A DNA stretch of 64,000 nucleotides from an uncultured Rikenellaceae bacterium. Lineage in GTDB: Bacteria; Bacteroidota; Bacteroidia; Bacteroidales; VadinHA17. Both the position numbers and the translations under genes were made by a program. The DNA lies in the NCBI GenBank assembly GCA_964633195.1, contig CAZWFL010000010.1, positions 21,732-85,731 on the forward strand, read 5' to 3'. Shown piece after piece: positions 35,505 through 63,812 of the stretch. The stretch's first letter is position 1. The number at the start of each line of letters is the position of its first letter. The notes under the pieces were generated by a model, which was not told the DNA's origin, did no database searches, and saw only the letters and a program-made list of their open reading frames with translations.

Positions 35505-35531
35505 TAAAATAAAATACTTAAAATGAGCCAC

Positions 35532-43867: not shown

Positions 43868-45181
43868 ATGAGAAAAATTTTGTTTTTATTATCATGTTTG
43901 CTTTTAATAATGAGCAACCCGCTGGTTATCAGTGGTCAGGAAACAAAGCCTCGCGTTATTGTAATGACAGATGGAGAAATTGATGATCGCAGTTCGATGG
44001 TTCGGTTTTTGCTTTACACGAATGATATTGAACTTCTTGCGATAATTCAAACAAGTTCAGTATACCAACGCCAGGGATGGAGCAAGGATAAATGGATTGA
44101 AGCACAAATTGACGCTTACGAGAAGGTTTACCCAAATTTAAAAATTCACGACCCTTCCTATCCGACTGCGGATTACTTAAGGAGCGTATTATATATTGGG
44201 GATGAAGTTGAGGAACATCTGGTTGTGGATCGGGCATCTAACAGGCGGTTCCCGGGGATGGACCCGGTAATTGATCCGGCAGGCTGGCCAGACACACCAG
44301 GGTCAGACAAGATCGTGGAGATTTTGTTGCAAGATGATCCCAGGCTAGTTTATATTCAGGCATGGGGAGGGGGTAATACGGCTGCGAGAGCATTTCATAA
44401 GTTGAAGACCCAATATCCGGCTGATTATGACAGAGCTGTATCGAAAGCCGTCATGTATCACATCTGGTATCAGGATGGGGCAGGAAATTATATTGAAAGA
44501 TACCATCCAAAAGTGACAATGGTGCTCAGTTACTTTTTTTCTGGAACATGGGATTACGGTAGTCAGAGATATACATTTCAGTTTGTTGAAGATTATGTAA
44601 AGAATAATCACGGGCCCCTTGGAGCTCTTTATCCACAGGATTACATAAGTGAGGGAGATTCACCGGCGTATCTGTATTCGATAGCCAATGGACTCAGGAG
44701 TCATGAGAATCCGACGTATGGAGGATGGGGAGGTCGTTTTTACAATGTCTATGGAAACGTATACAGGGATGTTTCGAAAGGGTCTTATCTTAAGTGGGTT
44801 GAATTTGCGAACAGGGATTTTGAGGCAAGAATGAAGTGGTGTGTTGCTAACAAGTATGAAGATGCTAATCACAGGCCGGTAGTAAAAGTAAAAGGAGAAT
44901 TGGACAGGACTGTACGATCAGGGGAGCCTGTGGAATTGTTCGCAGAGATCAATGATCCTGATGGACAACGCACTTCTCCTTTGTGGTGGCAGTTCAAAGA
45001 GGCCGGAACATACGATGGAATGGTAGAAACTTCTGATCCAAGGGCCAATAATATTAGTTTTGTTGCTCCGTATGTTGCCAGGCCGAGTACGATCCATATG
45101 ATTATAGAGGCTTCAGACCGGGGCAGTCCAAGCCTTACATCATTTAAAAGGGTAATAATTACGGTTATACCAGCATTTTAG
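43868..45181 (+). CDS. DUF1593 protein (nucleoside-hydrolase-like N-domain plus Ig-like C-domain), secreted; paralogue A
   Basis: 437 aa with a signal peptide. Motifs PRVIVMTDGEIDDRSS, AWGGGNT, EGDSPAYLY, GGWGGRF, RDFEARMKWC and DANHRPV are shared with four other ORFs in the locus. Confidence 0.8.
   Translation: MRKILFLLSCLLLIMSNPLVISGQETKPRVIVMTDGEIDDRSSMVRFLLYTNDIELLAIIQTSSVYQRQGWSKDKWIEAQIDAYEKVYPNLKIHDPSYPTADYLRSVLYIGDEVEEHLVVDRASNRRFPGMDPVIDPAGWPDTPGSDKIVEILLQDDPRLVYIQAWGGGNTAARAFHKLKTQYPADYDRAVSKAVMYHIWYQDGAGNYIERYHPKVTMVLSYFFSGTWDYGSQRYTFQFVEDYVKNNHGPLGALYPQDYISEGDSPAYLYSIANGLRSHENPTYGGWGGRFYNVYGNVYRDVSKGSYLKWVEFANRDFEARMKWCVANKYEDANHRPVVKVKGELDRTVRSGEPVELFAEINDPDGQRTSPLWWQFKEAGTYDGMVETSDPRANNISFVAPYVARPSTIHMIIEASDRGSPSLTSFKRVIITVIPAF
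44252..44829. repeat. 578-bp tract 100% identical to 57962-58539
   Basis: Line-by-line comparison at a fixed offset of 13710 nt. First mismatches are at 44251/57961 (c/t) and 44830/58540 (a/g). The flanks are clearly diverged. Confidence 0.95.
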
Positions 45182-45302
45182 TGCTCTGCTTTTGGTATCA
45201 GTTGGCTTTCATTCACAATCTGTGTTACTTCAAAGTGAACTAATTATTGATTGAGGATCGAAAACATAAAATGAAATAGTTTATTAAACTAACAAATTAA
45301 AA

Positions 45303-46841
45303 ATGAACAAATTAATTTACAGCATAATTATTGTTGCCTTTTTCGTATCCTGTAATCAGAAAAATGCAAATATTGAACAGTGGGATGTCTTTGAGATCAC
45401 ACTAAACGGGCCATCTGAGGGAAATCCCTACATGGAGGTTGAGTTGTCAGCGGTTTTCACCGGTAGTGGTGAAAATATTACCGTCCCCGGGTTTTATGAC
45501 GGGAACGGGACCTACCGTATCAGGTTTTCCCCACCCGCTCAGGGTAACTGGAAATACCGGACTTCAGGCAATGTTCCTGAACTTATCGATAAAAAAGGGA
45601 AGTTCAGTTGTATAAAACCTTCCGGTAAAAACCATGGTCCCGTGAAGGTAGTCAATACTTATTACCTGGAATATGCCGACGGAGCGCCTTTCTATTCTGT
45701 CGGGACGACTGCCTATCAGTGGACAAGTGTAAAGCAGAGTATTCAGGATAAAACAATTGAAACCCTTTCTGAGGCTCCTTTCGACAAGATGAGGATGTGT
45801 GTTTTCCCAAAATGGTACAGATACGGGAACGATACTGAGCCATGGATCTACCCATATAAAAGAGAAGAGGGAAAGAATGATTTCACACAGCCCAATTATG
45901 AATTCTTTCAAAACTTCGACAGGAGGGTTAAACAACTTATGGAAATGGGAATTGAAGCCGATGTGATATTGTTCCATGAATATGACAACTGGGGTTATTT
46001 TGAGATGGGAAATGAGATGAATGAAAGATATGTGCGTTACATGATTGCCCGGATTTCTGCTTACAGGAACGTTTGGTGGTCGCTCGCAAATGAATGGGAT
46101 ATCCCAAGACTTAAAGTCGCAATAGACTGGGAGGGGATCGGAACGCTTCTCCATGATGAGGATCCTCATCAGCGTTTACGCGGGATACACAACTGGCATG
46201 GTTCAGAAGATCATTTCTATGATCATTCACGTCCATGGATCACCCATGTAAGTGCCCAGACTTCGCAGTTTTATAATGCAATCAAGTGGCGGGAGCAGTA
46301 CAATAAGCCTCTGCTCTTCGACGAGATGCGCTACGAAGGGGATGTCCCGAGCGGGTGGGGTAACCTGACCGCTCAGGAGATGACCAGTTATTTCTGGATG
46401 GCCGGGCTGAGCGGAGGCTATGGAACTCATGGCGATACCTTCAGTAACAACTCCGACGATTCTACGGAGGTACGCTGGTGGGGAAAAGGAGGGACTCTTC
46501 CCGGGAAGAGCCCTGAAAGGATCAGTTTCTTCAGGTCGGTTATGGAACAGGCTCCGGTTACAGAGATGAAGCCTGAGCTTATAGATAATGGCGATCCGGC
46601 AAACCTGAATAATAATATCCATGTTTTTTCAAAGGCGGGAGAGTATTACCTGGTCTATGTTGCAGATGCGGATATGAATATTGAGGTTAATCTTTCAGGT
46701 GATACTGATTATAATCTGGATATTATAGACACCTGGGACATGAAAATTGTCAGCCAGTCTACTGTTAAGCAAGGGGTATATAATTACTTAACGATATTAC
46801 CCTATACTGCATTAAGATTTCAAATCAACGGGGATGAGTAA
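45303..46841 (+). CDS. DUF5060/DUF4038-type glycoside hydrolase (GH140 apiosidase-like), lipoprotein; copy 1
   Basis: 512 aa. N-terminal beta-sandwich WDVFEITLNGPSEGNP...FYDGNGTYRIRF, then a TIM-barrel-like region with MRMCVFPKWY and WSLANEWD (clan GH-A acid/base-type NE). Confidence 0.65.
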   Translation: MNKLIYSIIIVAFFVSCNQKNANIEQWDVFEITLNGPSEGNPYMEVELSAVFTGSGENITVPGFYDGNGTYRIRFSPPAQGNWKYRTSGNVPELIDKKGKFSCIKPSGKNHGPVKVVNTYYLEYADGAPFYSVGTTAYQWTSVKQSIQDKTIETLSEAPFDKMRMCVFPKWYRYGNDTEPWIYPYKREEGKNDFTQPNYEFFQNFDRRVKQLMEMGIEADVILFHEYDNWGYFEMGNEMNERYVRYMIARISAYRNVWWSLANEWDIPRLKVAIDWEGIGTLLHDEDPHQRLRGIHNWHGSEDHFYDHSRPWITHVSAQTSQFYNAIKWREQYNKPLLFDEMRYEGDVPSGWGNLTAQEMTSYFWMAGLSGGYGTHGDTFSNNSDDSTEVRWWGKGGTLPGKSPERISFFRSVMEQAPVTEMKPELIDNGDPANLNNNIHVFSKAGEYYLVYVADADMNIEVNLSGDTDYNLDIIDTWDMKIVSQSTVKQGVYNYLTILPYTALRFQINGDE

Positions 46842-46872
46842 TGAGCAATTAATTTAAATAAACTTACCAATT

Positions 46873-47889
46873 ATGATTTTAGTTAATAGTTATTCTTTGG
46901 CAATTGCCTTCTTTATTGTCACAATGATTTGTTGGGGTTCATGGGCAAATACGCAGAAACTTGCAGCCAGAACATGGCGTTTTGAGCTATTCTACTGGGA
47001 TGTAGTTACCGGATTGTTGATTTTTTCAATTTTAGCCGCATTTACCCTGGGGTCGTTTGGAAGCGAAGGACGCACATTTATTGAGGACTTACGGCAGGCA
47101 AATATTTCAAGTATTGGCTCAGCCATTCTTGGAGGTGTCGTATGGAACCTGGGTAATCTTTTTCTTGTTGCAGCAATAGCAGTGGCCGGAATGTCGGTAG
47201 GATTCCCTATCGGGGGCGGAATAGCCTGGATTCTTGGTATCATCGTGAATTATTTACTTGTAGTGATGCGTTCAGGAAGATCAGGAGATAATGATCTGCT
47301 TCTCTTTACTGGAGTCATAGCAATAATTGGTGCCATAATTCTGAGTATGCTTTCATACAAGCGTCTGGCAAGTGAGAACAAAAAACCAACAACAAAAGGA
47401 ATATTGCTCTCAGTGTCTGCGGGGTTGCTCATTGCATTTTTTTACGGTCTGGTAGTGAATTCTCTCGATCCGCAATTCGTCAATGGTGGTGGTGGGAATC
47501 TAACTCCTTACTCGGGCGCGTTTTTCTTTGCTCTGGGGGCTTTTCTCAGCACATTTATTTTCAACCCGGTTTTCATGGCTAAACCAGTGCAGGGTGATCC
47601 TGTAAAGATTGGGGAATATTTTAAGGGATCAGTTAAAACTCATTCAATCGGCATTTTGGGTGGAGTAATATGGATGACAGGAATGGTTGTAAGTTTTATG
47701 TCGGTGGGTGCTGCTGGACCTGCAATCTCATACGCACTGAGTAATGCAGCTCCAGTTGTTGCCATCTTATGGGGTGTATTTGCATGGAAAGAATTCAAAG
47801 AAGCTCCAAAAGGTACCAACCAGTTGTTGTTAATCATGTTTGTGCTTTTCCTTATAGGTTTAGTTTTAATTACTATGGCCAAAGCTTAG
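46873..47889 (+). CDS. DMT-superfamily sugar permease (GRP/RhaT-like)
   Basis: 338 aa, about 10 TM in two homologous halves, each ending in a WG...W(K)E(F)K-like segment (AILWGVFAWKEFKE). No signal peptide. Confidence 0.55.
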   Translation: MILVNSYSLAIAFFIVTMICWGSWANTQKLAARTWRFELFYWDVVTGLLIFSILAAFTLGSFGSEGRTFIEDLRQANISSIGSAILGGVVWNLGNLFLVAAIAVAGMSVGFPIGGGIAWILGIIVNYLLVVMRSGRSGDNDLLLFTGVIAIIGAIILSMLSYKRLASENKKPTTKGILLSVSAGLLIAFFYGLVVNSLDPQFVNGGGGNLTPYSGAFFFALGAFLSTFIFNPVFMAKPVQGDPVKIGEYFKGSVKTHSIGILGGVIWMTGMVVSFMSVGAAGPAISYALSNAAPVVAILWGVFAWKEFKEAPKGTNQLLLIMFVLFLIGLVLITMAKA

Positions 47890-47939
47890 AGCCTGGCATT
47901 TAATAAGATACTATTATAGTCTGGCAATAGCGCATACTT

Positions 47940-48806
47940 ATGATTAAAACGGAAGACAAATACATTTCTCTTAAGCTAACAGCGGAAAAAATTCGCAAAC
48001 GAGTTATTGAAATAATTTACCGGGCAAAATCTGGACATACAGGAGGCTCCCTTTCAATAATTGATATTCTTACGGTTTTGTATTTTAATATATTGAGAAT
48101 TGATCCTAAGTATCCAGAGATGCCAGATCGCGATCGATTTATTCTGAGCAAGGGTCATAGTGTGGAAAGTTTGTTTTGCATTCTCGCCGAAGCGGGGTTT
48201 TTAAGTAATGATGTGTTGATGACATACGGAACTTATAAATCCAAATTAGCTGGCCACCCTACTGTAAATGTTCCTGGAATTGAAATATGTAGCGGTGCCC
48301 TGGGACATGGACTATCGGTTGGAGCAGGTATGGCTTTAAGCGCCAGGATGGATAAGAGGGATTGGTGGGTATTTGTGCTCATGGGTGACGGAGAACAAAA
48401 TGAAGGTTCTGTTTATGAAGCTGCAATGGCTGCCAGACACTATCAGCTTGATAATCTGATAGCAATTATAGACAGGAATAATTTACAAATAAGTGGCAAC
48501 ACTGAAAACATTATGACACTTGAACCGATTGATAAACGATGGGAGGCTATGGGGTGGGAGGTGTTAAAAACCAACGGGCATGATATTGGTGCCATACTCT
48601 ATGCTTTTTCACTTTTAAAGATTAAAGCAGGAAAGCCTCACCTTTTAATTGCAGATACAATTAAAGGTAAAGGAATTTCATTTATGGAAAATGATCCCAA
48701 ATGGCATCATGGTGTGCCAAATGAGAACCAGTATCATTTGGCAATAAAGGAGATAGATGATCGGATCGTACACTTAACAGCTTTATTAGAACAGGAAAAT
48801 GAGTGA
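47940..48806 (+). CDS. Transketolase, N-terminal (TPP-binding) subunit
   Basis: 288 aa. GHTGGSLS and the TPP motif LMGDGEQNEGSVYEA. The stop overlaps the start of the C-terminal subunit gene by 8 nt. Confidence 0.9.
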   Translation: MIKTEDKYISLKLTAEKIRKRVIEIIYRAKSGHTGGSLSIIDILTVLYFNILRIDPKYPEMPDRDRFILSKGHSVESLFCILAEAGFLSNDVLMTYGTYKSKLAGHPTVNVPGIEICSGALGHGLSVGAGMALSARMDKRDWWVFVLMGDGEQNEGSVYEAAMAARHYQLDNLIAIIDRNNLQISGNTENIMTLEPIDKRWEAMGWEVLKTNGHDIGAILYAFSLLKIKAGKPHLLIADTIKGKGISFMENDPKWHHGVPNENQYHLAIKEIDDRIVHLTALLEQENE

Positions 48807-49731
48807 TCCTTGCAGAAAAGTTTTTACAGATACATTGTTGCAAAAGGCTTACACGGACGGGAATATAGTGGTAGTAACAACTGACGCCCGGGGGTCGGTC
48901 ACTTTAAACCGGTTTGCAGATGAATTACCCAACCAATTTATAGAAGTTGGTATAGCTGAACAGAATGCAATCGGTGTTGCAGCAGGATTGGCTGCCAGTG
49001 GAAAAAAGGTTTTTGTGTGTGGCCCTGCCTGTTTTTATTCTGCACGGGCTCTTGAGCAGATTAAAGTTGACGTGGCTTATTCGAATAAACCCGTTAAGAT
49101 AATTGGTGTTAGCGGTGGCGTGAGTTATGGGGCTCTTGGAAGTACTCATCACAGCCTGCACGACATTGCAGTGATGCGTACTTTTCCAGGATTAAATGTT
49201 TTTCTTCCTTGTGATAACACACAAACCCGTGAATTAATTGTTCAGATGATCAACTACCGGCATCCGGCCTATATAAGAATGGGAAGAGGTGCAGTGCCTG
49301 ATGTATATAGTGATGGTAACTGTAATTTAACTGTGGGGAGAGCAAATATCCTGTTGGACGGTGATGATCTTACTATTATTGGGACCGGAGAAACTGTATT
49401 TTATTGCCTGGAAGCTGGAAAGCTTCTGCAGGCCAAGGGTATTTCAGCAAGGATTCTGGACATGCACACGATAAAACCAGTTGACAGGTTGGCGGTTATA
49501 AATGCCGCAAAGGAAACAGGGCGCATTATTACTGTCGAGGAACATAGCATTTTTGGGGGACTGGGTTCGATTGTGGCTGAGATAGTGGTTCAAAATTTCC
49601 CGGTTCCGGTAAGGATCATCGGCATTCCTGATGAAAACGCAGTGCATGGTTCCTCCTCAGAAATCTTCAGGCATTACGGAATAACCAGTGAGAACATTGC
49701 AAATACTGCAGAGAAGCTAATTAACAATTAA
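48799..49731 (+). CDS. Transketolase, C-terminal (pyrimidine-binding) subunit
   Basis: 310 aa. FIEVGIAEQNAIGVAAGLA and HHSLHDIAVMR. Translationally coupled to the N-terminal subunit gene. Confidence 0.9.
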   Translation: MSDPCRKVFTDTLLQKAYTDGNIVVVTTDARGSVTLNRFADELPNQFIEVGIAEQNAIGVAAGLAASGKKVFVCGPACFYSARALEQIKVDVAYSNKPVKIIGVSGGVSYGALGSTHHSLHDIAVMRTFPGLNVFLPCDNTQTRELIVQMINYRHPAYIRMGRGAVPDVYSDGNCNLTVGRANILLDGDDLTIIGTGETVFYCLEAGKLLQAKGISARILDMHTIKPVDRLAVINAAKETGRIITVEEHSIFGGLGSIVAEIVVQNFPVPVRIIGIPDENAVHGSSSEIFRHYGITSENIANTAEKLINN

Positions 49732-49740
49732 AAACCAGTT

Positions 49741-51222
49741 ATGCAAAAACACATATTATCAATTGATCAAAGTACGTCAGCGACCAAAGCCATACTCTTT
49801 GATAGTAAGGCACAAGTTGTGGCAAGGATGTCAAAAGAGCATAAACAGTTTTATCCCAGGCCGGGCTGGGTAGAACATGACCCTGATGAGATCTTAACAA
49901 ATACCTTCAGGATCATTAATGAAATTTGTAATTCCAATAAAATTATAAATATTGAATCTTTAGCTATTACCAACCAGAGGGAGACTGTTGTAGTTTGGGA
50001 CATTACAACGGGGAAACCTGTTTATAATGCGATCGTTTGGCAGTGTAACCGGGGTGCTGATCGATGCAGGAGACTTATGGAAGATGGTTGGGGAAAAGCG
50101 ATTCAGGATAAAACCGGATTAATTATTGACCCATATTTTTCAGCTACAGGAATATGCTGGATACTGGATAATGTACCTGGGGCAAGAGAAAAGGCTGAAA
50201 AAGGGCTATTGCGGTTTGGTACAACAGACAGTTGGTTAATCTGGAATTTAACTAATGGCAAGGTACATGCAACAGACTATACCAATGCTTGCCGCACAAT
50301 GCTATTTAACATAAATAACTTGTCATGGGACAATGAAATTATGGATGAATTAGGCATCCCGGTTATCATGGCTCCGGAAGTAAAGTATTCAGATGATCTG
50401 TTTGGAAGCACCACTGCAGGGGGAGCATTTAAAGTTCCCATTCCTGTGTCCGGGGTATTGGGAGATTCACATGCTGCACTTTTTGGCCAGCTTTGTCTTA
50501 CTCCCGGCATGGCCAAGGCAACTTATGGTACTGGTTCTTCCATAATGATGAACATAGGAGATAAACCACTTGAGAGTCCGGAAGGATTGGTAACATCGAT
50601 AGGCTATGGGGTGGATAAATCCATTGCCTATGTGTTTGAGGGCAATATACATTATACAGGGGCTACGATCAAGTGGTTGCAAGATGATTTGCAGCTCATC
50701 AAAGATGCTGGTGAAACCGAGATTTTAGCCACTTCAGTTGATTCCACTGAGGGTGTTTATCTGGTGCCGGCTTTCACCGGACTTGGAGCTCCATACTGGG
50801 ACAATGAAGCAAGAGCAATCATTTGTGGTATGTCACGTGGGACTAAAAAAGCTCACGTGGTTCGCTCAGCACTGGAAGCTATTGCCTATCAGGTGAAAGA
50901 CCTGGTTGATCTGATGATCTCCCAGGCCGGTATTGAACTTAAAGAATTAAAGGTTGACGGTGGAGCGACACGCAATGAATTTTTAATGCAGTTTCAAACC
51001 GACATTATAAAGACAAAAGTTGTACGATCGGATATTGAAGAGATATCGGCTCTTGGTTCAGCTTTTGCAGCAGGTCTTGCTACAGGTATCTGGAAAGATA
51101 TCGAAGAAATTAAGAGACTTTATGTTACCGGGAAAATCTATTCAGGCCAGATGACAGATGATGAGATTGATAGCTTATATCATGGTTGGAAAATTGCAGT
51201 TAATAGAACCCAGTTTAAATAG
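49741..51222 (+). CDS. FGGY-family carbohydrate kinase (glycerol-kinase-like)
   Basis: 493 aa. IDQSTSATKAILFD, ITNQRETVVVWD, DPYFSATGICWIL, GDSHAALFGQ, VDGGATRNEFLMQFQTDI. Confidence 0.85.
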   Translation: MQKHILSIDQSTSATKAILFDSKAQVVARMSKEHKQFYPRPGWVEHDPDEILTNTFRIINEICNSNKIINIESLAITNQRETVVVWDITTGKPVYNAIVWQCNRGADRCRRLMEDGWGKAIQDKTGLIIDPYFSATGICWILDNVPGAREKAEKGLLRFGTTDSWLIWNLTNGKVHATDYTNACRTMLFNINNLSWDNEIMDELGIPVIMAPEVKYSDDLFGSTTAGGAFKVPIPVSGVLGDSHAALFGQLCLTPGMAKATYGTGSSIMMNIGDKPLESPEGLVTSIGYGVDKSIAYVFEGNIHYTGATIKWLQDDLQLIKDAGETEILATSVDSTEGVYLVPAFTGLGAPYWDNEARAIICGMSRGTKKAHVVRSALEAIAYQVKDLVDLMISQAGIELKELKVDGGATRNEFLMQFQTDIIKTKVVRSDIEEISALGSAFAAGLATGIWKDIEEIKRLYVTGKIYSGQMTDDEIDSLYHGWKIAVNRTQFK

Positions 51223-51251
51223 ATATAAATTAAACCTTAAAATTCAATATT

Positions 51252-52664
51252 ATGAAAAAGAAACAAACATTTGGTGTGATTATTGCCACCAGGAATATCT
51301 TCAATTTTCAACTTGCTGTTGAAGCTAGAAAGAAGGTATTATCAAAGCTTGAGAGTATGGGTTTTGATGCAATAATTTTGCCGGAGAAAGAAACCCCTAC
51401 CGGAAATATTGAAGGATACTCCGATGCAGTTAAATGTGCTGAGCTTTTTAGGAATAATGCTAATCTAATTGAGGGTATAATAGTTATCTTACCAAATTTT
51501 GGTGACGAACTTGGTGTGGTAAATACTATCAGTCTGAGTGGGCTGAAGGTGCCGGTTCTGGTTCAGGCCTGCGATGATGACAATGATAAAGTTGATGTGA
51601 AAAGCAGGAGGGATGCTTTTTGCGGTAAGCTATCGGTGTGTAATAATTTATATCAATATGGAATAAAATTTACTGATACTAAATACCACACCTATTCTCT
51701 CGATAGCAGTGAGTTTACTATGGATTTGTTAAAATTTGCAGGTGTATGTCGTGTAGTAAAAGGTTTTAAAGGTTTGAGGGTTGGGGCAATTGGTACCCGT
51801 CCCGGTGGTTTTCAAACCATGCGTGCAAGTGAGAAACTGCTTCAGAAGTCTGGGATAACATTAGTGCCGGTTGATATGTCTGAGATAATAGCTGCTGCAA
51901 ATAAGATGAAGGACGATGAGCAGGTAGTAGTAGATAAAGTAAAAGCTATACAGGAATACGGTACTTGTGCTACGGTATCAAAGGAAAAGATTGCTCGTCA
52001 GGCACGCTTTGGAGTAGCGGTTGAAAATTGGATAGCTGATAATAATATTAACATTTCAGCACTTCAGTGCTGGGAATCGATTGAAAGAAATTACGGATGT
52101 GCTGCCTGTGTTACCATGAGCATGATGGGAGAAAAACTGATGCCCTCAGCCTGTGAGGTTGATATTGCAGGTTCTATTGCCATGTATGCATTAGCCCTCG
52201 CTGCCCAGACGCCTTCTGCATTACTGGACTGGAATAATAATTTTGGAGAAGATCGAGATAAAGTTGTATGTACACATTGCAGCAATTACCCAAAATCATT
52301 TTTCCAGAACGACATTGAGTTAGGCAGCCTTGATGTACTGGGAACTGTATTGGGGAGTGAGGACACATTTGGTGCAGTAAAGGGTAAAGTTTCCCCCGGT
52401 GACATGACCTATTTTAGAGTATCAACAGATGATCAGAAGGGATTTATACGTACTTATCTTGGTGAAGGTATCATTACTGATGACCCTTATGGTATGGACG
52501 GTGGAATTGCCGTTTGTCAGATACAAAATCTGCAAAAGCTTATGAAATTCATGTGTAAATACGGCTTTGAACATCATGTAGGAATGGTTCGGGGTCATGT
52601 AGCTGAAATTATTGAAGAAGCTATAGGCAATTATATTGGATGGGAACTTTATCGTCATGAATGA
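51252..52664 (+). CDS. L-fucose/L-arabinose-isomerase-family sugar isomerase
   Basis: 470 aa, cytoplasmic. RVGAIGTRPGGFQTMR, ACEVDIAGSIAMYAL and EHHVGMVRGH resemble fucose-isomerase-family proteins. Confidence 0.7.
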   Translation: MKKKQTFGVIIATRNIFNFQLAVEARKKVLSKLESMGFDAIILPEKETPTGNIEGYSDAVKCAELFRNNANLIEGIIVILPNFGDELGVVNTISLSGLKVPVLVQACDDDNDKVDVKSRRDAFCGKLSVCNNLYQYGIKFTDTKYHTYSLDSSEFTMDLLKFAGVCRVVKGFKGLRVGAIGTRPGGFQTMRASEKLLQKSGITLVPVDMSEIIAAANKMKDDEQVVVDKVKAIQEYGTCATVSKEKIARQARFGVAVENWIADNNINISALQCWESIERNYGCAACVTMSMMGEKLMPSACEVDIAGSIAMYALALAAQTPSALLDWNNNFGEDRDKVVCTHCSNYPKSFFQNDIELGSLDVLGTVLGSEDTFGAVKGKVSPGDMTYFRVSTDDQKGFIRTYLGEGIITDDPYGMDGGIAVCQIQNLQKLMKFMCKYGFEHHVGMVRGHVAEIIEEAIGNYIGWELYRHE

Positions 52665-52804
52665 TTCAACAGAATATCTTGCTAAATATGGTCAGGCATA
52701 ATAATTTTTACATGCATCAGCACAGATTAAATTAATATATTTTCAATGGCCATTTATTTAAAACATTTAATTAATCCGATTATTTACATAAATGCTTAAC
52801 AAGT

Positions 52805-54322
52805 ATGAAAAGAATAGTTTTGGCTGTATTATTACTGCAGAGCACGGTAATATTTTCCCAAAGCAGTATTGAAAAATGGAAAGTATTTGAAATAACGCTT
52901 AAAGGACCTTCTTCCGGGAATCCTTTTCAGGATGTGACCCTGACAGCAACCTTTTCTAACGGTGTGACAGAAACTGATATTACAGGGTTTTACGATGGGA
53001 ATGGTATATTCAAGATCAGGTTCATGCCAGCGGAAGAAGGGAAATGGAATTACATCACTAAAAGCAATCAGAAAGCGCTCAACAATAAAAAGGGGCAATT
53101 TACATGCATACCCCCTACTGGTAACAATCATGGTCCGGTGATTGTTAAAGATACTTTCAACTTTGCTTATGCTGATGGCACACCACATTATTCGTTTGGA
53201 ACCACAGCGTATGCGTGGATACATCAGGGTGACAGCCTGGCACAACTTACCCTCCAGACTTTATCAAAAGGGTATTTTAACAAGATGCGTATGTGTATCT
53301 TCCCAAAAGATTATAATTGGAACAAGAACGAACCTTTGCTTTATCCCTTCGAAGGACAACCAATCACAGACTGGGATTATTCCCGATTCAATCCTTCGTA
53401 TTTCCGAAATGTCGAAAAACGGATTTCACAGTTAGACTCGTTAGGAATTGAAGCTGACCTTATTGTTTTTCATCCATACGACCGATGGGGATTTGCAAAT
53501 ATGGACAGAGAAACCGACGAGAGATACATCAGGTATGTTGTTGCCAGATTTGCAGCTTTTAAAAATGTATGGTGGAGTATGGCTAATGAATACGATTTTA
53601 TGAAGAGTAAGAACTTGGACGACTGGGATAGATTTATTGACCTGTTTGCACAGATAGATCCTTACCATCGCTTACTTGGGATTCACAACGGAAGAGTCTG
53701 GTATGACCACACAAATCCTTTAATAACCCATGCAAGCATTCAAAACGAAGATACCTATAATGCAAGAGAATACCGGAATAAGTACAAAAAACCTGTCGTC
53801 TTCGACGAATGCCGTTACGAGGGAACTATTCCCAGTTCCTGGGGAAACATTACTGCTGAGGAGATGGTAAATAAATTTTGGTATGGATTCACTAATGGCG
53901 GACATGTCGGACATGGTGAAACCTATCTTACTGAGAATCCTTTGGTCTGGCCAGATAAATCATCTGACGTATTGTGGTGGTCGAAGGGAGGAATTTTAAG
54001 GGGAGAAAGTCACCCCAGGATTAAGTTCTTAAGGGAGATTGTTGAATCGGCGCCAGGTTATCTCGGCCTTACACCATATTTCAGGGGAACGCGGCGGTTT
54101 ACTGTTGTTAGCTATAAGGATGAATATTTTTTGGCATATTTCAGCCTCGATCAACCCAGAGCTACAATAATTACACTACCAAAGGGGAGAACCTATAAGG
54201 TCGATATTATTGATGCCTGGAATATGACCATACAGACCCTTAATGGCACATATAGTGGCAGGTGTATGATCGAATTGCCGGGGAAACCGTTTACAGCTTT
54301 GCGTATTATAAGCACTCCTTAA
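52805..54322 (+). CDS. DUF5060/DUF4038-type glycoside hydrolase (GH140 apiosidase-like), secreted; copy 2
   Basis: 505 aa. Collinear with 45303..46841 (WKVFEITLKGPSSGNP, FYDGNGIFKIRF, MRMCIFPKDY, WSMANEYD). Clearly diverged from copy 1 but alignable throughout, judged by eye. Confidence 0.65.
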   Translation: MKRIVLAVLLLQSTVIFSQSSIEKWKVFEITLKGPSSGNPFQDVTLTATFSNGVTETDITGFYDGNGIFKIRFMPAEEGKWNYITKSNQKALNNKKGQFTCIPPTGNNHGPVIVKDTFNFAYADGTPHYSFGTTAYAWIHQGDSLAQLTLQTLSKGYFNKMRMCIFPKDYNWNKNEPLLYPFEGQPITDWDYSRFNPSYFRNVEKRISQLDSLGIEADLIVFHPYDRWGFANMDRETDERYIRYVVARFAAFKNVWWSMANEYDFMKSKNLDDWDRFIDLFAQIDPYHRLLGIHNGRVWYDHTNPLITHASIQNEDTYNAREYRNKYKKPVVFDECRYEGTIPSSWGNITAEEMVNKFWYGFTNGGHVGHGETYLTENPLVWPDKSSDVLWWSKGGILRGESHPRIKFLREIVESAPGYLGLTPYFRGTRRFTVVSYKDEYFLAYFSLDQPRATIITLPKGRTYKVDIIDAWNMTIQTLNGTYSGRCMIELPGKPFTALRIISTP

Positions 54323-55920: not shown

Positions 55921-56023
55921 CATAATAGATTAACTATTTTGATTTAATGTAGCCTGAATCCTTGAGATAGTTAAACTGTCATGAACAATATTCTTTGTGT
56001 TTGAAAAATAAAAGTAATACCGA

Positions 56024-57430
56024 ATGAATGCTTTTCATTACCTTTTGATAATAATATTACTGCAATTAGAATCCGGAGTTTCCCCACATGGTGCCATTCA
56101 ACCGTATCGGAATAACCCCTGGTATTGGGAGTATAAAGGTGAACCAATTCTGTTGAGAGGTGCGAGTGACGAAGATAATCTTTTTCAGTGGACAGGCAGG
56201 AAGTTAACTGAGCACCTGGATCTTCTTTCGTCGGTTGGTGGCAATTACCTGCGAAACACTATGTCTGATCGTGATACGGGAAATGTCTATGCATTTGGTC
56301 AGACTGGTAACAACCTTTATGACCTCGAGCGATGGAACGACGAATACTGGGATCGTTTGACTTTTTTCCTCGATGAAACATCAAAGCGCGATATAATTGT
56401 TCAGCTTACTCTCTGGGATCAATTTGACCTGAGCACATCGCATCCATGGTTTAACAACATCAATATTAAGAAGGACGTAATAAACAACAGGGCTGCTTTT
56501 TATAAGACTGTGGAAACTAATAATAAAGAAGGTCTTTACTATCAAGGCAAGTTTATTGATAAGCTTCTGTCAATTACCCTGAAATATGATCACATCTTGT
56601 ACAATATCAACAACGAGAGCAGTGAAGGCGCGATCTGGGAAAATTACTGGGCAAGATATATACAGAAGACAGCAGAAAATTTGAGGCGGAATGTGTGTAT
56701 CACAAGTATGCAGTTTGACCCTACTAACTCTGTAAGGCATGTAATGACATTCCGGAACTTTTACAGCTTTGTAGAAATATCTCAGAATAATCAGGATTCA
56801 AGGGGAGGAAGAGGGCATGCTCATTGGGAAAACATAATGAATTGGAGGAAGAAGATAGTTTCCCAAAATACCGGCCCTATGCCAATGAATAATGAAAAGG
56901 TCTACGGAGGGAAAGATGGAGTAAACTACTCAGCTGGCACAGAAACAGAGGCAATAAACCGGTTTTGGCGAAATATTTTTGCAGGATGTGCCGCAAGTCG
57001 GTTTCACCGTCCTGCAGAACCGAGAGTCTGGGGTGCAGGCCTGAACGATCGTGTTCAGATAAACCTGAAAGCTATGGATATGCTGCTTGAAGAGTTGGAT
57101 ATATTTTCTGCTTCACCTCATAACGATCTTTTAATACATACCGTAGCAGCCACAGCCACTTCTATGGAAGCATACGTAACCGCAGAAATTGGAAGGCAGT
57201 ATGCAGTTTACTTTCCGCCAGGGAATAATATGGTCGGACTTGATCCATGGATATATGTGAATAAATTGAAAATTCGCTGGCTGGACATAGATGAGTTGAA
57301 ATGGTCAGATCCCGAAGTAGTAAATGTACAGTGGGAAGGAAGTAGAAATGAATGGGGAGACCGGGGCATGATCATTTTGAAGACTCCAAGTAATCGTCCT
57401 TATGTTGCATTAGTTGAGGTCGGAGAATAG
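56024..57430 (+). CDS. Orphan protein, possibly a clan GH-A-like TIM-barrel glycoside hydrolase
   Basis: 468 aa. The N-terminus NPWYWEYKGEPILLRGAS resembles the entry strand of DUF4038/GH5-like enzymes. YNINNESSEG is a possible acid/base NE. No family recognised. Confidence 0.3.
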   Translation: MNAFHYLLIIILLQLESGVSPHGAIQPYRNNPWYWEYKGEPILLRGASDEDNLFQWTGRKLTEHLDLLSSVGGNYLRNTMSDRDTGNVYAFGQTGNNLYDLERWNDEYWDRLTFFLDETSKRDIIVQLTLWDQFDLSTSHPWFNNINIKKDVINNRAAFYKTVETNNKEGLYYQGKFIDKLLSITLKYDHILYNINNESSEGAIWENYWARYIQKTAENLRRNVCITSMQFDPTNSVRHVMTFRNFYSFVEISQNNQDSRGGRGHAHWENIMNWRKKIVSQNTGPMPMNNEKVYGGKDGVNYSAGTETEAINRFWRNIFAGCAASRFHRPAEPRVWGAGLNDRVQINLKAMDMLLEELDIFSASPHNDLLIHTVAATATSMEAYVTAEIGRQYAVYFPPGNNMVGLDPWIYVNKLKIRWLDIDELKWSDPEVVNVQWEGSRNEWGDRGMIILKTPSNRPYVALVEVGE

Positions 57431-57574
57431 ACTTTGTTATTAATGAAATATACAGAGCAGAGATTGGCCCAAAGTTCTAAGCTCATCAAATCAGCGAAGG
57501 GATGTAACTAAATTGAATATAACTAAGGAAATATGTTAAATAAAAATTCATATGAAATGAAGAAAATGTTAAAA

Positions 57575-58900
57575 ATGAGAAGATTATTATTAATGTTATC
57601 GGGTCTGCTTTTAATATTAATTAGCAACCCACTGGTTGCCCAGGGTCAGGAAACAAAACCCCGGGTTATTGTAATGACAGATGGAGAAGTTGATGATCGC
57701 AGTTCGATGGTTCGGTTTTTACTTTACACGAATGATATTGAACTTCTTGCGATCATTCAAACAAGTTCAGTATACCAGCGCCAGGGGTGGAGCAAGGATA
57801 AATGGATAGAAGCCCAGATTGATGCTTACGAAAAGGTACACCCAAATTTAATAATTCACGACCCTTCCTATCCTACTGCGGATTATTTACGGAGTGTATT
57901 ATATGTCGGGGATGAAGCTGAGGAACATCTGGTTGTGGATCGTGCATCGAACAGGCGGTTTCCGGGGATGGACCCGGTAATTGATCCGGCAGGCTGGCCA
58001 GACACACCAGGGTCAGACAAGATCGTGGAGATTTTGTTGCAAGATGATCCCAGGCTAGTTTATATTCAGGCATGGGGAGGGGGTAATACGGCTGCGAGAG
58101 CATTTCATAAGTTGAAGACCCAATATCCGGCTGATTATGACAGAGCTGTATCGAAAGCCGTCATGTATCACATCTGGTATCAGGATGGGGCAGGAAATTA
58201 TATTGAAAGATACCATCCAAAAGTGACAATGGTGCTCAGTTACTTTTTTTCTGGAACATGGGATTACGGTAGTCAGAGATATACATTTCAGTTTGTTGAA
58301 GATTATGTAAAGAATAATCACGGGCCCCTTGGAGCTCTTTATCCACAGGATTACATAAGTGAGGGAGATTCACCGGCGTATCTGTATTCGATAGCCAATG
58401 GACTCAGGAGTCATGAGAATCCGACGTATGGAGGATGGGGAGGTCGTTTTTACAATGTCTATGGAAACGTATACAGGGATGTTTCGAAAGGGTCTTATCT
58501 TAAGTGGGTTGAATTTGCGAACAGGGATTTTGAGGCAAGGATGAAGTGGTGTGTTGCTGATAAGTATGAAGATGCTAATCACAGACCGGTAATAAAAGTG
58601 AAGGGAGAACTGGATCGAACGGTAAAATCAGGTGAGAAAATTGTATTGGAGGCCGAAGCTATTAATCCGGATGGTGTAGGATTCCGTGAAATACTTTGGT
58701 GGCAGTACAAGGAGGCAGGAACATATAATGGAATGGTTGAGACAACTGATCCCAGAAACAATGCTATTAGTTTTGTCGCTCCCCATGTTACGACTCCACA
58801 AACTATTCATATGATTTTTGAGGCCACTTCCCTCGGAGTACCACGTTCGTTTCTTACTGGATTTACGAGGGTTATTATAACTGTGGTTCCGGCATTTTAA
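57575..58900 (+). CDS. DUF1593 protein, secreted; paralogue C (near-twin of A)
   Basis: The track start is 57533. ATG 57575 (MRRLLLMLSG...) aligns with the start of paralogue A. The central 578 bp are identical to A; the C-terminal Ig-like domain is diverged. Confidence 0.8.
   Translation: MRRLLLMLSGLLLILISNPLVAQGQETKPRVIVMTDGEVDDRSSMVRFLLYTNDIELLAIIQTSSVYQRQGWSKDKWIEAQIDAYEKVHPNLIIHDPSYPTADYLRSVLYVGDEAEEHLVVDRASNRRFPGMDPVIDPAGWPDTPGSDKIVEILLQDDPRLVYIQAWGGGNTAARAFHKLKTQYPADYDRAVSKAVMYHIWYQDGAGNYIERYHPKVTMVLSYFFSGTWDYGSQRYTFQFVEDYVKNNHGPLGALYPQDYISEGDSPAYLYSIANGLRSHENPTYGGWGGRFYNVYGNVYRDVSKGSYLKWVEFANRDFEARMKWCVADKYEDANHRPVIKVKGELDRTVKSGEKIVLEAEAINPDGVGFREILWWQYKEAGTYNGMVETTDPRNNAISFVAPHVTTPQTIHMIFEATSLGVPRSFLTGFTRVIITVVPAF
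57962..58539. repeat. 578-bp tract 100% identical to 44252-44829
   Basis: See 44252-44829. The identical antisense shadow ORFs in the track (44345..44611 = 58055..58321) confirm it independently. Confidence 0.95.
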
Positions 58901-59023
58901 ACTACTCAATTAAGGCTTTTTTTGACCCTTATTGTAGTTTTAAATGCTTTTCGACCGTTTTTGACAACCAGATCATTAGGTCAATTATATAAGATTGTTC
59001 CGTTTTATTATATAATAATAATT

Positions 59024-59938
59024 ATGGAGTTAATAAATAAAAGAATGGTTCATGCCATCTATATAGTAATCTTTCAGTTGCTTTTACCGACCAACACATT
59101 ATGCCAAAATGCAGATGATTTTAGCAAAATTGTAATAACCAAAGAACAACGGTTTGGTTACATGACGTGGAAAATCCAAGCAGCAAATGGAATTTGGCAT
59201 TACGAAATAGAAAAATTAGAAAATGTTGAGCCCGGTACTGGCTTTAGTTCGGCCATAGATCAATCCGGAAATGATTGGATAGGCAATGATTGTGTAGGCA
59301 GAAGAGAATGGCGAGGGTGGCCTAATTTTGGATCTGATGGTTTTGGACACCCTTGCCGCGGTGGCAGTGGCAAATCCAGATGGTTGGATTCAGATGGCAA
59401 TCAGATTGAATTTGAGGAAAAATATGTCGGAGAATATCTCATTCTGGAATCGTGGAATGAAAAATTCCGACTATGGTATCATTTTTTCCCGAGTCATATT
59501 GCTATTCAAATACTTGAAGCTCACGATCTTTATTCGTTCTTATGGGAAGGCCCCATAGCCGGAGAAATGAACCTCGATCAGCAATACTATGTGCTTGAGG
59601 ACGGGAAGAAACGAAGACTTCCATATAATACCGGTTTAGGTTATTTAGAACCAGAGTTTGGACGTAATTTCCCTTCATCTTTCTTTTATTTCCTTGATGA
59701 TAATGCGGAACAAATTGTATATATAGCTGTTAAGGATCAGAGTGAAGGTGGTGATGAGGGTTGGTGTCAACCAAATAACATGGTAATATTTAGTTTTGGC
59801 CGTGAAGATGATAAACGTGCACTGTCAGGAACTGATGCCATATGTGTTTTTGGTTTTCTAAACAAGAATATTGGACATGAAGAAATAAAGAGTTTTATTA
59901 TGGATCGCCTGGATAATCCATTTCAGAAAGGAAATTAA
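59024..59938 (+). CDS. Orphan secreted protein, no recognisable family
   Basis: The track ORF starts at TTG 58922. ATG 59024 gives MELINKRMVHAIYIVIFQLLLPTNTLCQ (signal-like). About 304 aa; no motif I can assign. Confidence 0.4.
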   Translation: MELINKRMVHAIYIVIFQLLLPTNTLCQNADDFSKIVITKEQRFGYMTWKIQAANGIWHYEIEKLENVEPGTGFSSAIDQSGNDWIGNDCVGRREWRGWPNFGSDGFGHPCRGGSGKSRWLDSDGNQIEFEEKYVGEYLILESWNEKFRLWYHFFPSHIAIQILEAHDLYSFLWEGPIAGEMNLDQQYYVLEDGKKRRLPYNTGLGYLEPEFGRNFPSSFFYFLDDNAEQIVYIAVKDQSEGGDEGWCQPNNMVIFSFGREDDKRALSGTDAICVFGFLNKNIGHEEIKSFIMDRLDNPFQKGN

Positions 59939-60056
59939 TTATGAAAATAACAGTCATCCATACTTAATCCTTATTTACTTAACATGTATGGCCATTATAT
60001 TATTATTAATCAATGAATGCTTCTTTCATGACTGCAAAACTTTTAAATAAAATGAT

Positions 60057-61559: not shown

Positions 61560-61624
61560 TAATCTGTATATATAAATTAACTCCGCTAAAAGTTATTCTG
61601 TTAACCTTAAAATTTAAATAAATC

Positions 61625-62278
61625 ATGAGAACTTTTTTAATAAGTATTTTGTTGATTTTTTCAGCGATAAGGTGTTGCGGACAAGAAATGAAATTTAAAT
61701 ATCATGAAATTGGCAGATTTGGCAAATTGATGGGGCAAACTGCATTAGTCGATGTAAACAACAATGGCTATCTCGACTGGGTTTTCGGGGTCAGAGGTGA
61801 AATGTATTTTTATCAGTATGTTTCGCCATCGGAATGGATATTGAGAGAGATCGGTAAAGGGGCAAAAACAGATGTTGGTGGTTGCCCGCTCGACGTGAAT
61901 AAAGATGGCTGGATTGATTTTATTGTCGGTGATTCCTGGTACGAAAATACGGGAGATCCGCAGAACAAAACTTTTGTTTTGCACACGAAGAACATGCTTG
62001 GTACCGCCCATGATGTAATAGCAGTTGATATCGACGGAGACGGTATCAAGGATATTGTCCAGATGTCAAATCACGCTGATCATCCGGTACTTGCCTGGTA
62101 CAGAATCCCGGAGAACTACCATGCCAACTGGGACTACCTGAAGATAAGCCCGGGCATACATGGTGGTATTGCACCGAGGGGTTACGGAGATCTTGATAAT
62201 GATGGTGATATTGATATTGTTACCAAACCCTGGAGCGGAGATCTTCATTTTTTTCTCGAAAACAAAGTATTTGAGTAA
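61625..62278 (+). CDS. FG-GAP/VCBS-like repeat protein, unusually short
   Basis: 217 aa with a signal peptide. Four Ca-binding-type repeats: DVNNNGYLDW, DVNKDGWIDF, DIDGDGIKDI, DLDNDGDIDIV. Confidence 0.6.
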   Translation: MRTFLISILLIFSAIRCCGQEMKFKYHEIGRFGKLMGQTALVDVNNNGYLDWVFGVRGEMYFYQYVSPSEWILREIGKGAKTDVGGCPLDVNKDGWIDFIVGDSWYENTGDPQNKTFVLHTKNMLGTAHDVIAVDIDGDGIKDIVQMSNHADHPVLAWYRIPENYHANWDYLKISPGIHGGIAPRGYGDLDNDGDIDIVTKPWSGDLHFFLENKVFE

Positions 62279-62366
62279 GTTACTATAACATCAAGTGAGA
62301 GGTAAAGTCTTAGGATTACCTGCTCTATTGAAATTTCTGATAATCAAGATTTTAACTTTATAACTA

Positions 62367-63812
62367 ATGCCTAATAAAATAATTATGAAAACAACTTTCT
62401 TCATTTACCTGTTTTCTTTGCTGTTCATTTCCTATCCCCTTTATGCGCAATCAGTTGAAAAACAAAGAGTGATTATTCTAACAGATATTGAAGCTGACCC
62501 TGACGATACCCAGTCTCTGATACGCCTTCTTTTGTATTCAAACCAGATTGACATAAAAGGGCTGGTTGCTACTACATCTACTCATCAGAAGAACTCCGTT
62601 TTTCCGCAATCCATAATAAACATTATTGAAGGATACCGAAAAGTGCAGCCGAATCTTGCATTACATGAATCAGGTTACCCGACAGCCGATGATTTATTAA
62701 AACTGGTAAAATCAGGACCCGCAGTGTATGGCATGAACGGTGTCGGTAAGGGACAGGATACGGAAGGTTCAGACTGGATCATTAAAGTGCTTGAAGAGGA
62801 TGATGACCGGCCTTTATGGATTTCTGTATGGGGAGGGGCAAACACCTTAGCCCAATCGCTCCATAGAATAAAAGCTACAAAGAGCAATAAAGATATTGCT
62901 GGATTAATCTCAAAATTAAGGGTATATACCATCTCAGATCAGGATGACAGCGGTATCTGGATCAGGAATAATTTCCCGGATCTTTTCTATATCGTAAGCC
63001 CGGGTAATTACGGCCGGTCTACCTGGATTGCTATTAATCAAGTTGTTGCGGGTATTGATAATGAAATGATTAGCAACAAATGGCTGGCAGATAACATACA
63101 ACAAGGACATGGCCCGTTGGGAGCTTTATATCCTGATGTTATGTGGGGAATGGAAGGAGATACGCCTGCCTTTTTATCATTGATCCCCAATGGATTAAAC
63201 CAACCAGAACGCCCCGATTGGGGCGGGTGGGGTGGCCGCTATGAACTTTACCAGCCAGAGTTTATAAACGACGGTGGTACAGGTGGAGTGAAAAAAGAAC
63301 CTGAAACCCGTCCGATATGGACGGACGCAACAGATAAATATGTCCCTTATGTATACAATCCTTATCGGAGGGCCTTGAAGTTAGCTGATAGTTTGTCGTT
63401 TCATGATAACAAAGTCACCCTATGGCGATGGAGGGAAGACTTCCAGAACGATTTCGCAGCCCGAATGGATTGGTGCGTTAAATCTTACGAAGAGGCAAAC
63501 CATCCACCTGTGCCGGCATTTTTACATGAAGATGAAATAGTGATAAAATCTGGCCAGTCTTTTGCACTTGATGCAAGTGGAACTTATGACCCAGATGGCG
63601 ATCATATTAGCTACTTGTGGTTTAGCTATCCGGAAGCAGGAAGCTACAAGGAATCTATCATCTCAGGTGTAATTAATTCATATAGGTATATAATTGTAGG
63701 TCCACAAGTTAAGAAACCAGAGACGGCGCATATAATTTTAAAGGTTACAGACAGGGGAACTCCACGATTATCCAGATATATAAGGCTTATTGTAAATATT
63801 GTACCGAAATAA
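62367..63812 (+). CDS. DUF1593 protein, secreted; paralogue E (TDIEADPDD class)
   Basis: 481 aa with a signal peptide. QRVIILTDIEADPDDTQS, VWGGANT, EGDTPAFLS, GGWGGRY, NDFAARMDWC, EANHPPV, DPDGD. Confidence 0.8.
   Translation: MPNKIIMKTTFFIYLFSLLFISYPLYAQSVEKQRVIILTDIEADPDDTQSLIRLLLYSNQIDIKGLVATTSTHQKNSVFPQSIINIIEGYRKVQPNLALHESGYPTADDLLKLVKSGPAVYGMNGVGKGQDTEGSDWIIKVLEEDDDRPLWISVWGGANTLAQSLHRIKATKSNKDIAGLISKLRVYTISDQDDSGIWIRNNFPDLFYIVSPGNYGRSTWIAINQVVAGIDNEMISNKWLADNIQQGHGPLGALYPDVMWGMEGDTPAFLSLIPNGLNQPERPDWGGWGGRYELYQPEFINDGGTGGVKKEPETRPIWTDATDKYVPYVYNPYRRALKLADSLSFHDNKVTLWRWREDFQNDFAARMDWCVKSYEEANHPPVPAFLHEDEIVIKSGQSFALDASGTYDPDGDHISYLWFSYPEAGSYKESIISGVINSYRYIIVGPQVKKPETAHIILKVTDRGTPRLSRYIRLIVNIVPK

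Follow-up and report, generated by a model that had tools for sequence, protein, structure and literature searches.

D-Apiose is a key sugar of rhamnogalacturonan II (RG-II) and of the apiogalacturonans of seagrass and duckweed, and the only family of bacterial apiosidases known to us is family GH140 of the glycoside hydrolases (GH). The present study concerns five paralogous genes of the Pfam family PF07632 (Sde182_NH-like, formerly DUF1593) in a stretch of 64,000 nucleotides from an uncultured Rikenellaceae bacterium (assembly GCA_964633195.1, contig CAZWFL010000010.1, positions 21,732 to 85,731 of the forward strand; this whole stretch is referred to as the window). PF07632 is a large family for which a structure was solved in 2011 (2YHG) and to which no activity has been assigned. 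The five genes lie in one locus for plant-glycan utilisation, with genes for an isomerase, a kinase and a split transketolase, together called the cassette, and with genes for barrels resembling GH140. In themselves, their products are unremarkable members of an orphan family that is already known; the novelty lies in the specific and quantified genomic link. Although unproven, they are good candidates for Ca2+-dependent sugar-releasing enzymes of a new type.

The closest described protein is Sde_0182 of Saccharophagus degradans, whose C-terminal region, 2YHG, is the only family member found in a sequence search of the Protein Data Bank (PDB). The nucleoside-hydrolase-like (NH-like) domain of Sde_0182 is reported to keep a Ca2+ ion and to have no activity on purine and pyrimidine nucleosides, the only compounds mentioned as tested; an extra Ig-like domain occupies the surface at which nucleoside hydrolases form dimers (review PMC8910321, citing Hehemann, Marsters and Boraston 2011). 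Since 2011 it has been hypothesised to be a furanose-interacting (ribofuranose) module (PMC8910321), so that furanose handling by this family is an already published idea and not a new one. The initial annotation described the structure of an S. degradans homologue with an NH-like fold as a product of structural genomics. The structure is real and no function has been published for it, but it came from a carbohydrate-enzymology laboratory and not from a structural-genomics centre. Neither an activity for PF07632/DUF1593 nor a paper mentioning either of these names was found in the literature searched, which covered the family names, 2YHG, Sde_0182, apiosidase and nucleoside-hydrolase-like themes.

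True nucleoside hydrolases (IU-NH, IAG-NH, RihA/B/C and URH1; PF01156) are cytoplasmic and carry an acidic cluster after strand 1. Of the aspartates in their DXDXXXDD motif, the second and fourth bind Ca2+ and the third binds ribose (bioRxiv 10.1101/574913). RusNH (BT2808), a canonical IUNH with this motif, is encoded beside ribokinases in a ribose-utilisation polysaccharide utilisation locus (PUL) of Bacteroides and is exported to the periplasm. It cleaves the O-linked p-nitrophenyl (pNP)-ribofuranoside, and its natural substrate is unclear (bioRxiv 10.1101/574913). The five proteins studied here resemble RusNH in the NH fold and in lying in a SusC/D locus; they differ from it in belonging to PF07632 and in lying beside the isomerase/kinase/transketolase cassette, and from the cytoplasmic nucleoside hydrolases in being secreted.

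Two systems bear on apiose itself. The GH140 apiosidases (BT1012, 5MSY/3KZS; the metagenomic 8T9W) are (beta/alpha)8 barrels which share their sugar with the function proposed below for the five proteins, whose fold is wholly different and which give no match to the apiosidase-like family PF13204. In Escherichia coli SE15, a D-apiose degradation cluster is supported by growth assays (PMC13001218). The record of this cluster holds the FGGY kinase gene aplK, the split transketolase genes aptA/aptB, an ABC transporter and two oxidoreductases. The D-apiose transketolase pathway (MetaCyc PWY-8089; ECSF_RS02670-02715) resembles the window in its FGGY kinase and split transketolase (40%, 43% and 37% identity); the window adds an aldose-ketose isomerase for the first step, and in place of an isomerase the E. 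coli SE15 cluster has the ABC transporter and the two oxidoreductases.

Results

Five PF07632 paralogues in one locus

The five genes are labelled A to E, and their open reading frames (ORFs) start in the window as follows. SPI denotes a leader of the signal-peptidase-I type.

43868..45181, + strand: paralogue A, class I motif TDGEIDD, SPI-type leader; PF07632 (E 3e-66) and PF21027
54463..55920, + strand: paralogue B, class II motif TDIGGDPDD, lipoprotein; PF07632 (E 1e-75) and PF21027
57575..58900, + strand: paralogue C (mosaic copy of A), class I motif TDGEVDD, SPI leader; PF07632 and PF21027
60057..61559, + strand: paralogue D, class I motif TDGEVDD with insertions, lipoprotein; PF07632 (E 9e-70) and PF21027
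62367..63812, + strand: paralogue E, class II motif TDIEADPDD, SPI leader; PF07632 (E 2e-110) and PF21027

The mechanically called ORFs of B and C are slightly longer, starting at TTG 54451 and ATG 57533. PF07632 was matched by all five proteins over profile positions 1-268 of 268 (E 1e-65 to 2e-110, 222-369 bits; Pfam gathering score 26.8 bits). The C-terminal Ig-like domain PF21027 (Sde0182_C) was likewise matched by all five (E 4e-11 to 8e-27, 44-94 bits; gathering score 27 bits). These E-values place the resemblance of the five ORFs far above chance. Every one of the collinear motifs listed for them in the initial annotation was present in the alignment, namely KPR/KQRxxVxTD, WGG[GAT][NH][TD] and EGD[ST]P, followed by GG[WI]GGR[FY], [NR]DF[AE]AR[MA]xWC and [ED]ANHxPV. 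At the amino-acid level C is 89% identical to A, and the remaining pairs with A range from 32 to 40%. Inspection of the N-termini identified leaders of the SPI type in A, C and E and lipoboxes in B (..FINSC) and D (..LLGC). NCBIfam supplied no name for the five paralogues, for the PF13204 proteins or for the ORFs at 56024 and 58922.

The similarity between A and C is a mosaic. When window positions 43904-44900 were compared with 57611-58610, a stretch of about 500 bp (44301-44800) was 100% identical in DNA sequence; the 100-bp blocks beside it were 86-96% identical, the 3' Ig-like part was 57-73% identical, and the flanks were unrelated. This pattern suggests recent gene conversion or a partial duplication of the putative catalytic domain; an assembly chimera is possibly its source.

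Linkage of the family to the catabolic cassette

The cassette lies between A and B and is made up of four genes.

47940..48806, + strand: split transketolase, N-terminal subunit (AptA-like); PF00456, 43% identical to E. coli SE15 AptA
48799..49731, + strand: split transketolase, C-terminal subunit (AptB-like); PF02779 and PF02780, 37% identical to AptB
49741..51222, + strand: GlpK-like FGGY kinase, candidate apulose kinase; FGGY_N/C, above the GlpK cut-off of NCBIfam
51252..52664, + strand: aldose-ketose isomerase resembling L-fucose isomerase, candidate apiose isomerase; PF02952

Gene neighbourhoods in other genomes were screened with the proteins of this window as the only queries. Two samples were used, one of 80 species-level orthologues of A (±10 kb) and one of 80 isomerase orthologues, around which DUF1593 genes were counted within 10 kb. 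Of the loci around the A-orthologues, 13-14 carry the split transketolase, 14 the FGGY kinase, 12 the isomerase and 11 GH140-like genes. The controls taken from the same window (AraA, GH31, GH51 and the aldose epimerase) were found in 0-1 of these 80 loci, and GH127 in 3. Many of the A-type loci hold two to five DUF1593 paralogues.

In the second sample the isomerase was accompanied by the FGGY kinase in 76/80 loci and by the transketolase in 71/80, which identifies the cassette as a conserved operon. A DUF1593 gene was present near the isomerase in 33/80 loci (28/56 of those of at least 15 kb) and a GH140-like gene in 18/80. The isomerase is 62-85% identical across these 80 closest genome loci, which are mostly from Bacteroidota.

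DUF1593 genes were also found inside the operon, between the genes for the two transketolase subunits (TK_N and TK_C) in L001/L157, L120, L123 and L124, and between TK_C and the kinase in L150. GH140-like genes occupy comparable slots of the same cassette, in the gap between TK_C and kinase or between kinase and isomerase (L103, L122, L127, L142, L143, L146 and L156). Both motif classes of DUF1593 are linked to the cassette; class II copies of the E type are most often directly adjacent to it (L085, L087, L091, L112, L130, L150 and others), and E is the copy of the window closest both to Sde_0182 and to the cassette-flanking copies elsewhere. The linkage recurs outside Bacteroidota, in an Opitutaceae member of the Verrucomicrobiota (L032) and in Actinacidiphila of the Actinomycetota (L073).

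Judged from homology, the cassette holds the three types of enzyme that a route from apiose through apulose and apulose-4-phosphate to xylulose-5-phosphate and dihydroxyacetone phosphate (DHAP) would need. The isomerase, kinase and split transketolase carry no specific functional name in public annotation and may therefore represent a form of the apiose pathway that has gone unannotated in Bacteroidota. A kinase of the GlpK type would be chemically reasonable for such a route, the far end of apulose being a 2-substituted glycerol. For the isomerase, a sequence search returned no relative in the PDB. A sulfoquinovose pathway was also considered for the cassette and rejected, the match to SftI scoring 112 bits against a cut-off of 700. 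To our knowledge, the sulfo-transketolase route needs no kinase.

Fold of the putative catalytic domain

Among the five paralogues, modelling and Foldseek searches covered A. The AlphaFold2 (AF2) model of A, built with 61 sequences, had a mean local confidence (pLDDT) of 93.5 and a predicted template-modelling score (pTM) of 0.89. Against the PDB, its top Foldseek match was 2YHG (E 3e-38, TM 0.80/0.85), followed by IAG-NH, IU-NH and URH1 (probability 1.0, E 2e-6 to 2e-4, target-normalised TM 0.42-0.53). The NH-like fold anticipated in the initial annotation was thus recovered, with 2YHG first and the true nucleoside hydrolases next. Since A belongs to class I, these matches indicate that this class, too, is NH-like in its predicted fold.

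In sequence searches 2YHG matched E, its closest copy in the window, at E 1.5e-81 and A at 9e-51. Like A-E, the C-terminal region of Sde_0182 carries PF07632 and PF21027 over its full length, and these are all secreted proteins of carbohydrate degraders. Its acidic motif, TDMGADPDD, is of class II, and the three class I copies differ from it in a loop shorter by two residues. Sde_0182 also has extra carbohydrate-binding modules, whereas A-E are stand-alone proteins in five versions.

With the nucleoside hydrolases, A shares the fold and an acidic cluster after strand 1. None of the five paralogues matched PF01156 at E<=0.01, the profile alignment was not significant, and the exact DxDxxxDD fingerprint is absent from A-E; by sequence, A-E fall on these grounds outside the nucleoside hydrolase family proper. 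An overlay of WGGxNT on GPLTN, obtained in the second attempt with hhalign, had no statistical support and was not used as a residue map.

Two classes of acidic cluster

Class I has the form TDGE[IV]DD (TDGEIDD in A, TDGEVDD in C and D) and class II comprises TDIGGDPDD in B and TDIEADPDD in E. The forms were surveyed in 123 family ORFs from 80 genome loci. A 7-residue form was found in 89/123 ORFs, 86 of which fit [TS]D[GA]E.DD, mostly as TD[GA]E[IVT]DD, and 9-10-residue forms such as TDIE[AN][DE]PDD were found in 19/123. These counts show that the two classes are real subfamilies. The split described in the initial annotation therefore holds for A-E and at the level of subfamilies; it is not strict, however, as other motif types occur across the family. 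The further types (L096, L120, L123, L124, L131 and L136) include TDISTWETDD and ORFs of ~340-490 aa that have no Asp cluster; copies of these types are frequently arranged in tandem between the genes for the two transketolase subunits. Those that have no cluster may be non-catalytic.

The initial annotation had also regarded class II as the more NH-like of the two. When compared with DXDXXXDD, class I (D-G-E-[IV]-D-D) has the spacing of the second, third and fourth Asp only, and class II (D-I-x-x-D-P-D-D) that of the first, third and fourth only, with Gly or Glu where the second Asp would stand. The argument falls because the DxxxDD spacing of the aspartates that bind Ca2+ and ribose is that of class I, and class II does not have the second Asp. 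By itself, linear spacing does not decide which of the two classes is the more NH-like.

The PF07632 family

At 50% identity PF07632 resolves into 9,940 clusters when matches of E<=1e-3 are counted and into 4,754 at E<=1e-10. The family is spread among glycan degraders of gut, rumen, soil and marine habitats. The database names of DUF1593 homologues are all generic. Across 61 diverse representatives, four elements are invariant: the first Asp of the cluster (that of TD), Q-D, E-G-D and N-H. The DD pair, WGG and GGWGGR show little or no variation. The partners found in 54 multidomain members are Ig/PKD/Big_2 domains, type IX secretion system (T9SS) tails, Laminin_G_3, PA14, malectin and CBM6, and no glycoside-hydrolase domain is among their 25 most frequent partner families. 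This set of partners suggests that the NH-like domain is itself the catalytic module. Fusions to GDSL and to beta-lactamase-like esterase domains are rare (2/54 each). One fusion of an NH-like domain with DUF5060 (P0094) is real but carries little weight, as it holds only the beta-sandwich without a GH140 catalytic domain.

The orthologue of A in Draconibacterium orientale (P0018, L166) lies in another PUL, with GH42, GH35-like, GH106, two GH43, GH78 and GH3 genes and no cassette nearby. The content of this PUL indicates that the family is also deployed in rhamnose- and galactose-rich loci of the pectic type without a nearby cassette.

GH140-like barrels of the locus

Three genes of the locus encode barrels of this kind.

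45303..46841, + strand: PF13204 apiosidase-like (GH140-related) barrel 1; DUF5060, PF13204 and DUF5605, lipobox FVSC
52805..54322, + strand: PF13204 apiosidase-like barrel 2, SPI leader; PF13204 match
56024..57430, + strand: DUF6298-type protein of 468 aa with a GH140-like (beta/alpha)8 fold; AF2 pLDDT 92.3, homologues with PF19815

Both PF13204 proteins are close to the PDB entry 4N0R (BVU_0362, no known function), at E 8e-100 for barrel 1 and 8e-122 for barrel 2. Their GH140 label is best read as a resemblance at the family level and not as orthology. Orthologues of barrel 2 are embedded in the isomerase/kinase/transketolase operon in several other genomes.

The protein at 56024 has no Pfam match of its own, and its homologues carry DUF6298 (PF19815). 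Foldseek matched its model best to 8T9W and 5MSY/3KZS (BT1012), at TM 0.60-0.70 and ahead of GH5 mannanases; according to the model, it is a candidate for a distant GH140-like hydrolase family. Homologues of this protein adjoin A-type genes in L010, L011 and L056.

Other genes of the locus and its boundary

From ~35.7 kb onwards, the regulators, SusC/D, A-E, the cassette and the GH140-like barrels form one co-directional locus. Its other genes are the following.

35688..36272, + strand: extracytoplasmic function (ECF) sigma factor, which probably regulates the locus; Sigma70_r2, r4_2 and ECF Pfam matches
36464..37501, + strand: FecR-type anti-sigma factor; PF04773 and PF16344
37643..41137, + strand: SusC-like TonB-dependent transporter; Plug and CarboxypepD_reg domains
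41155..42888, + strand: SusD-like glycan-binding lipoprotein; PF07980 and PF14322
42885..43619, + strand: small DUF3823/fn3-like lipoprotein, possibly surface glycan-binding; weak PF12866 and PF00041 matches below cut-off, lipobox VLGC by inspection
46873..47889, + strand: RhaT/GlcU-type sugar-proton symporter; Pfam and NCBIfam matches below the curated cut-offs, present in 37/80 cassette loci
58922..59938, + strand: secreted-looking protein of 338 aa; no Pfam or NCBIfam match
61625..62278, + strand: FG-GAP repeat protein; PF13517

Homologues of the 338-aa protein recur beside DUF1593 and GH140-like genes in L019, L020, L032 and L097.

Upstream, positions 12831-35504 hold a separate L-arabinose/arabinan block, which encodes an SSF symporter, AraA, a NUDIX/NrtR-AraR regulator, a protein of the class II aldolase family (epimerase-like) and an FGGY kinase. 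It also encodes a GH51-like arabinofuranosidase, two GH127 proteins, DUF6057, PD40 and FkbO/RidA-like proteins, a GH31 protein with a PA14 insert and an aldose 1-epimerase. The G+C content is 0.45-0.49 over 1-34 kb and drops to 0.35-0.43 over 36-64 kb, with a boundary at ~35500-36500 that coincides with the end of this block and the start of the ECF-sigma/anti-sigma locus; the two are possibly blocks of different history. Membership of A-E in the arabinan/arabinose locus was considered and rejected, as the regulator genes and the G+C shift lie between and the genes of the arabinose block are rarely near DUF1593 elsewhere.

Discussion

The function that we propose, at slightly less than an even chance, is that A-E are secreted, probably Ca2+-dependent furanosidases that feed the cassette, with a beta-D-apiofuranoside as the most likely substrate. 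Points in its favour are the genomic linkage of the family to the cassette and to GH140-like genes, the enzyme types that the cassette shares with the E. coli apiose cluster, the third GH140-like barrel, the Ca2+ reported for Sde_0182 and the D. orientale orthologue in a PUL with GH106, GH78 and GH43. Each protein, periplasmic or lipid-anchored, would consist of an NH-fold catalytic domain followed by the Ig-like domain and would act as an exo-glycosidase. A metal bound by the acidic cluster (TD..[ED]xDD) together with the invariant EGD and QD would chelate the furanoside through its cis-2,3-diol and activate water, so that the O-glycosidic bond would be hydrolysed by single displacement. D-Apiose freed in this manner would enter through the RhaT-like permease. 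The FucI-like isomerase would turn it into apulose, to which the GlpK-like kinase would add a phosphate, and from the phosphorylated product and glyceraldehyde-3-phosphate the split transketolase would yield xylulose-5-phosphate and DHAP. Cleavage between apiose and the backbone would fall to the GH140-like barrels, while A-E would each serve different aglycones or linkages.

A wider proposal, put forward tentatively and as somewhat less likely than not, is that PF07632 is the first glycoside-hydrolase family on the NH fold. On this view the family would consist of exo-beta-D-apiofuranosidases, or more broadly of cis-diol furanosidases, that depend on Ca2+. The acidic-loop subfamilies would be specific for particular apiosyl linkages, and the product would pass to a Bacteroidota apiose pathway in which a FucI-like apiose isomerase is joined by a split transketolase and an apulose kinase derived from GlpK. 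An enzymatic role is favoured by the invariant acidic and polar residues, by partner domains that serve in binding or sorting, and by the cleavage of an O-ribofuranoside by RusNH.

Several observations weigh against the apiosidase assignment. No PF07632 member has a known biochemical activity, and the sole one studied was inactive on nucleosides. In 66/80 of the A-type loci there is no cassette within 10 kb, and since many of the loci come from Bacteroidota the counts are not phylogenetically independent. The kinase is 40% identical to AplK as compared with 49% to E. coli GlpK; as it is closer to GlpK, and above the GlpK cut-off, it is only a putative orthologue of AplK. The homologues of the isomerase bear generic names ('fucose isomerase family') and no functional name, and an identity of 37-43% among split transketolases shows homology and is not specific for substrate. 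A profile of the two PF13204 proteins reached the apiosidase 8T9W at E 1.2e-4, which is a remote relationship, and no enzyme acting on a pectin backbone was seen in the window. As for the mechanism, hhalign comparison of the family with RihA/B/C gave a probability of <1% in two attempts, which is not significant, and the Ca2+ site of class I is putative. The view of the initial annotation that the neighbours fit apiose is upheld in part. The PF13204 pair, the third GH140-like barrel and a cassette of the same types as in E. coli speak for it, but the kinase is nearer to GlpK and the barrels are remote from proven apiosidases, so that the apiose assignment of the neighbours is itself an inference.

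The five proteins could be Ca2+/cis-diol glycosidases of the same kind acting on a sugar other than apiose, such as beta-D-ribofuranosides or another rare or branched furanose, with the cassette serving that sugar or several pathways; we consider this unlikely, though by no means far-fetched. The NH fold is built for ribofuranose, the kinase is GlpK-like and not clearly AplK-like, the isomerase is unnamed, most A-type loci have no cassette nearby and one orthologue lies among GH42, GH106, GH78 and GH43 genes. Yet neither a ribokinase nor a nucleoside transporter homologue was detected in the locus with Pfam and NCBIfam, and Sde_0182 is inactive on nucleosides. In addition, GH140-like genes occupy operon slots comparable to those of DUF1593, three such barrels are present here, and the logic of isomerase, kinase and split transketolase fits both the chemistry of apulose and the E. 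coli apiose cluster.

A catalytic role itself may be questioned. As non-catalytic furanose binders, A-E would be periplasmic or surface components for glycan binding, as proposed for Sde_0182, whose published picture is that of an inactive, Ca2+-containing and furanose-interacting protein. Two of the five, B and D, are lipoproteins encoded in a locus with SusC/D, and some family members have no Asp cluster, both of which would suit binders. We nevertheless regard this explanation as rather improbable. Acidic and polar residues stay invariant among paralogues that share 32-40% identity and in diverse representatives, and the multidomain partners are already binding or sorting modules and not catalytic ones. 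Furthermore, DUF1593 is the sole hydrolase-like gene detected beside the cassette in many operons, among the homologues of window genes that were screened, and five paralogous binders in a locus would be unusual. The proteins might, instead, act on these glycans as hydrolases of a bond that is not glycosidic, for instance by removing esters or other decorations from a furanose. The occasional fusions to GDSL and beta-lactamase-like esterases point in this direction, but they are rare, and the NH fold with its acidic cluster is known only for cleavage at C1', so that this possibility appears very slight.

If the proposed activity on apiofuranosides is true, PF07632 would become a new family of CAZy, its metal-assisted mechanism taken over from the nucleoside hydrolases. 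It would explain the source of free apiose in the many bacteria that have no GH140 beside their catabolic operon, and three catabolic enzymes of Bacteroidota that are now unannotated could be named. With the statistics of genome context, a 15-year-old guess at furanose binding by this family becomes a specific hypothesis that is cheaply testable.

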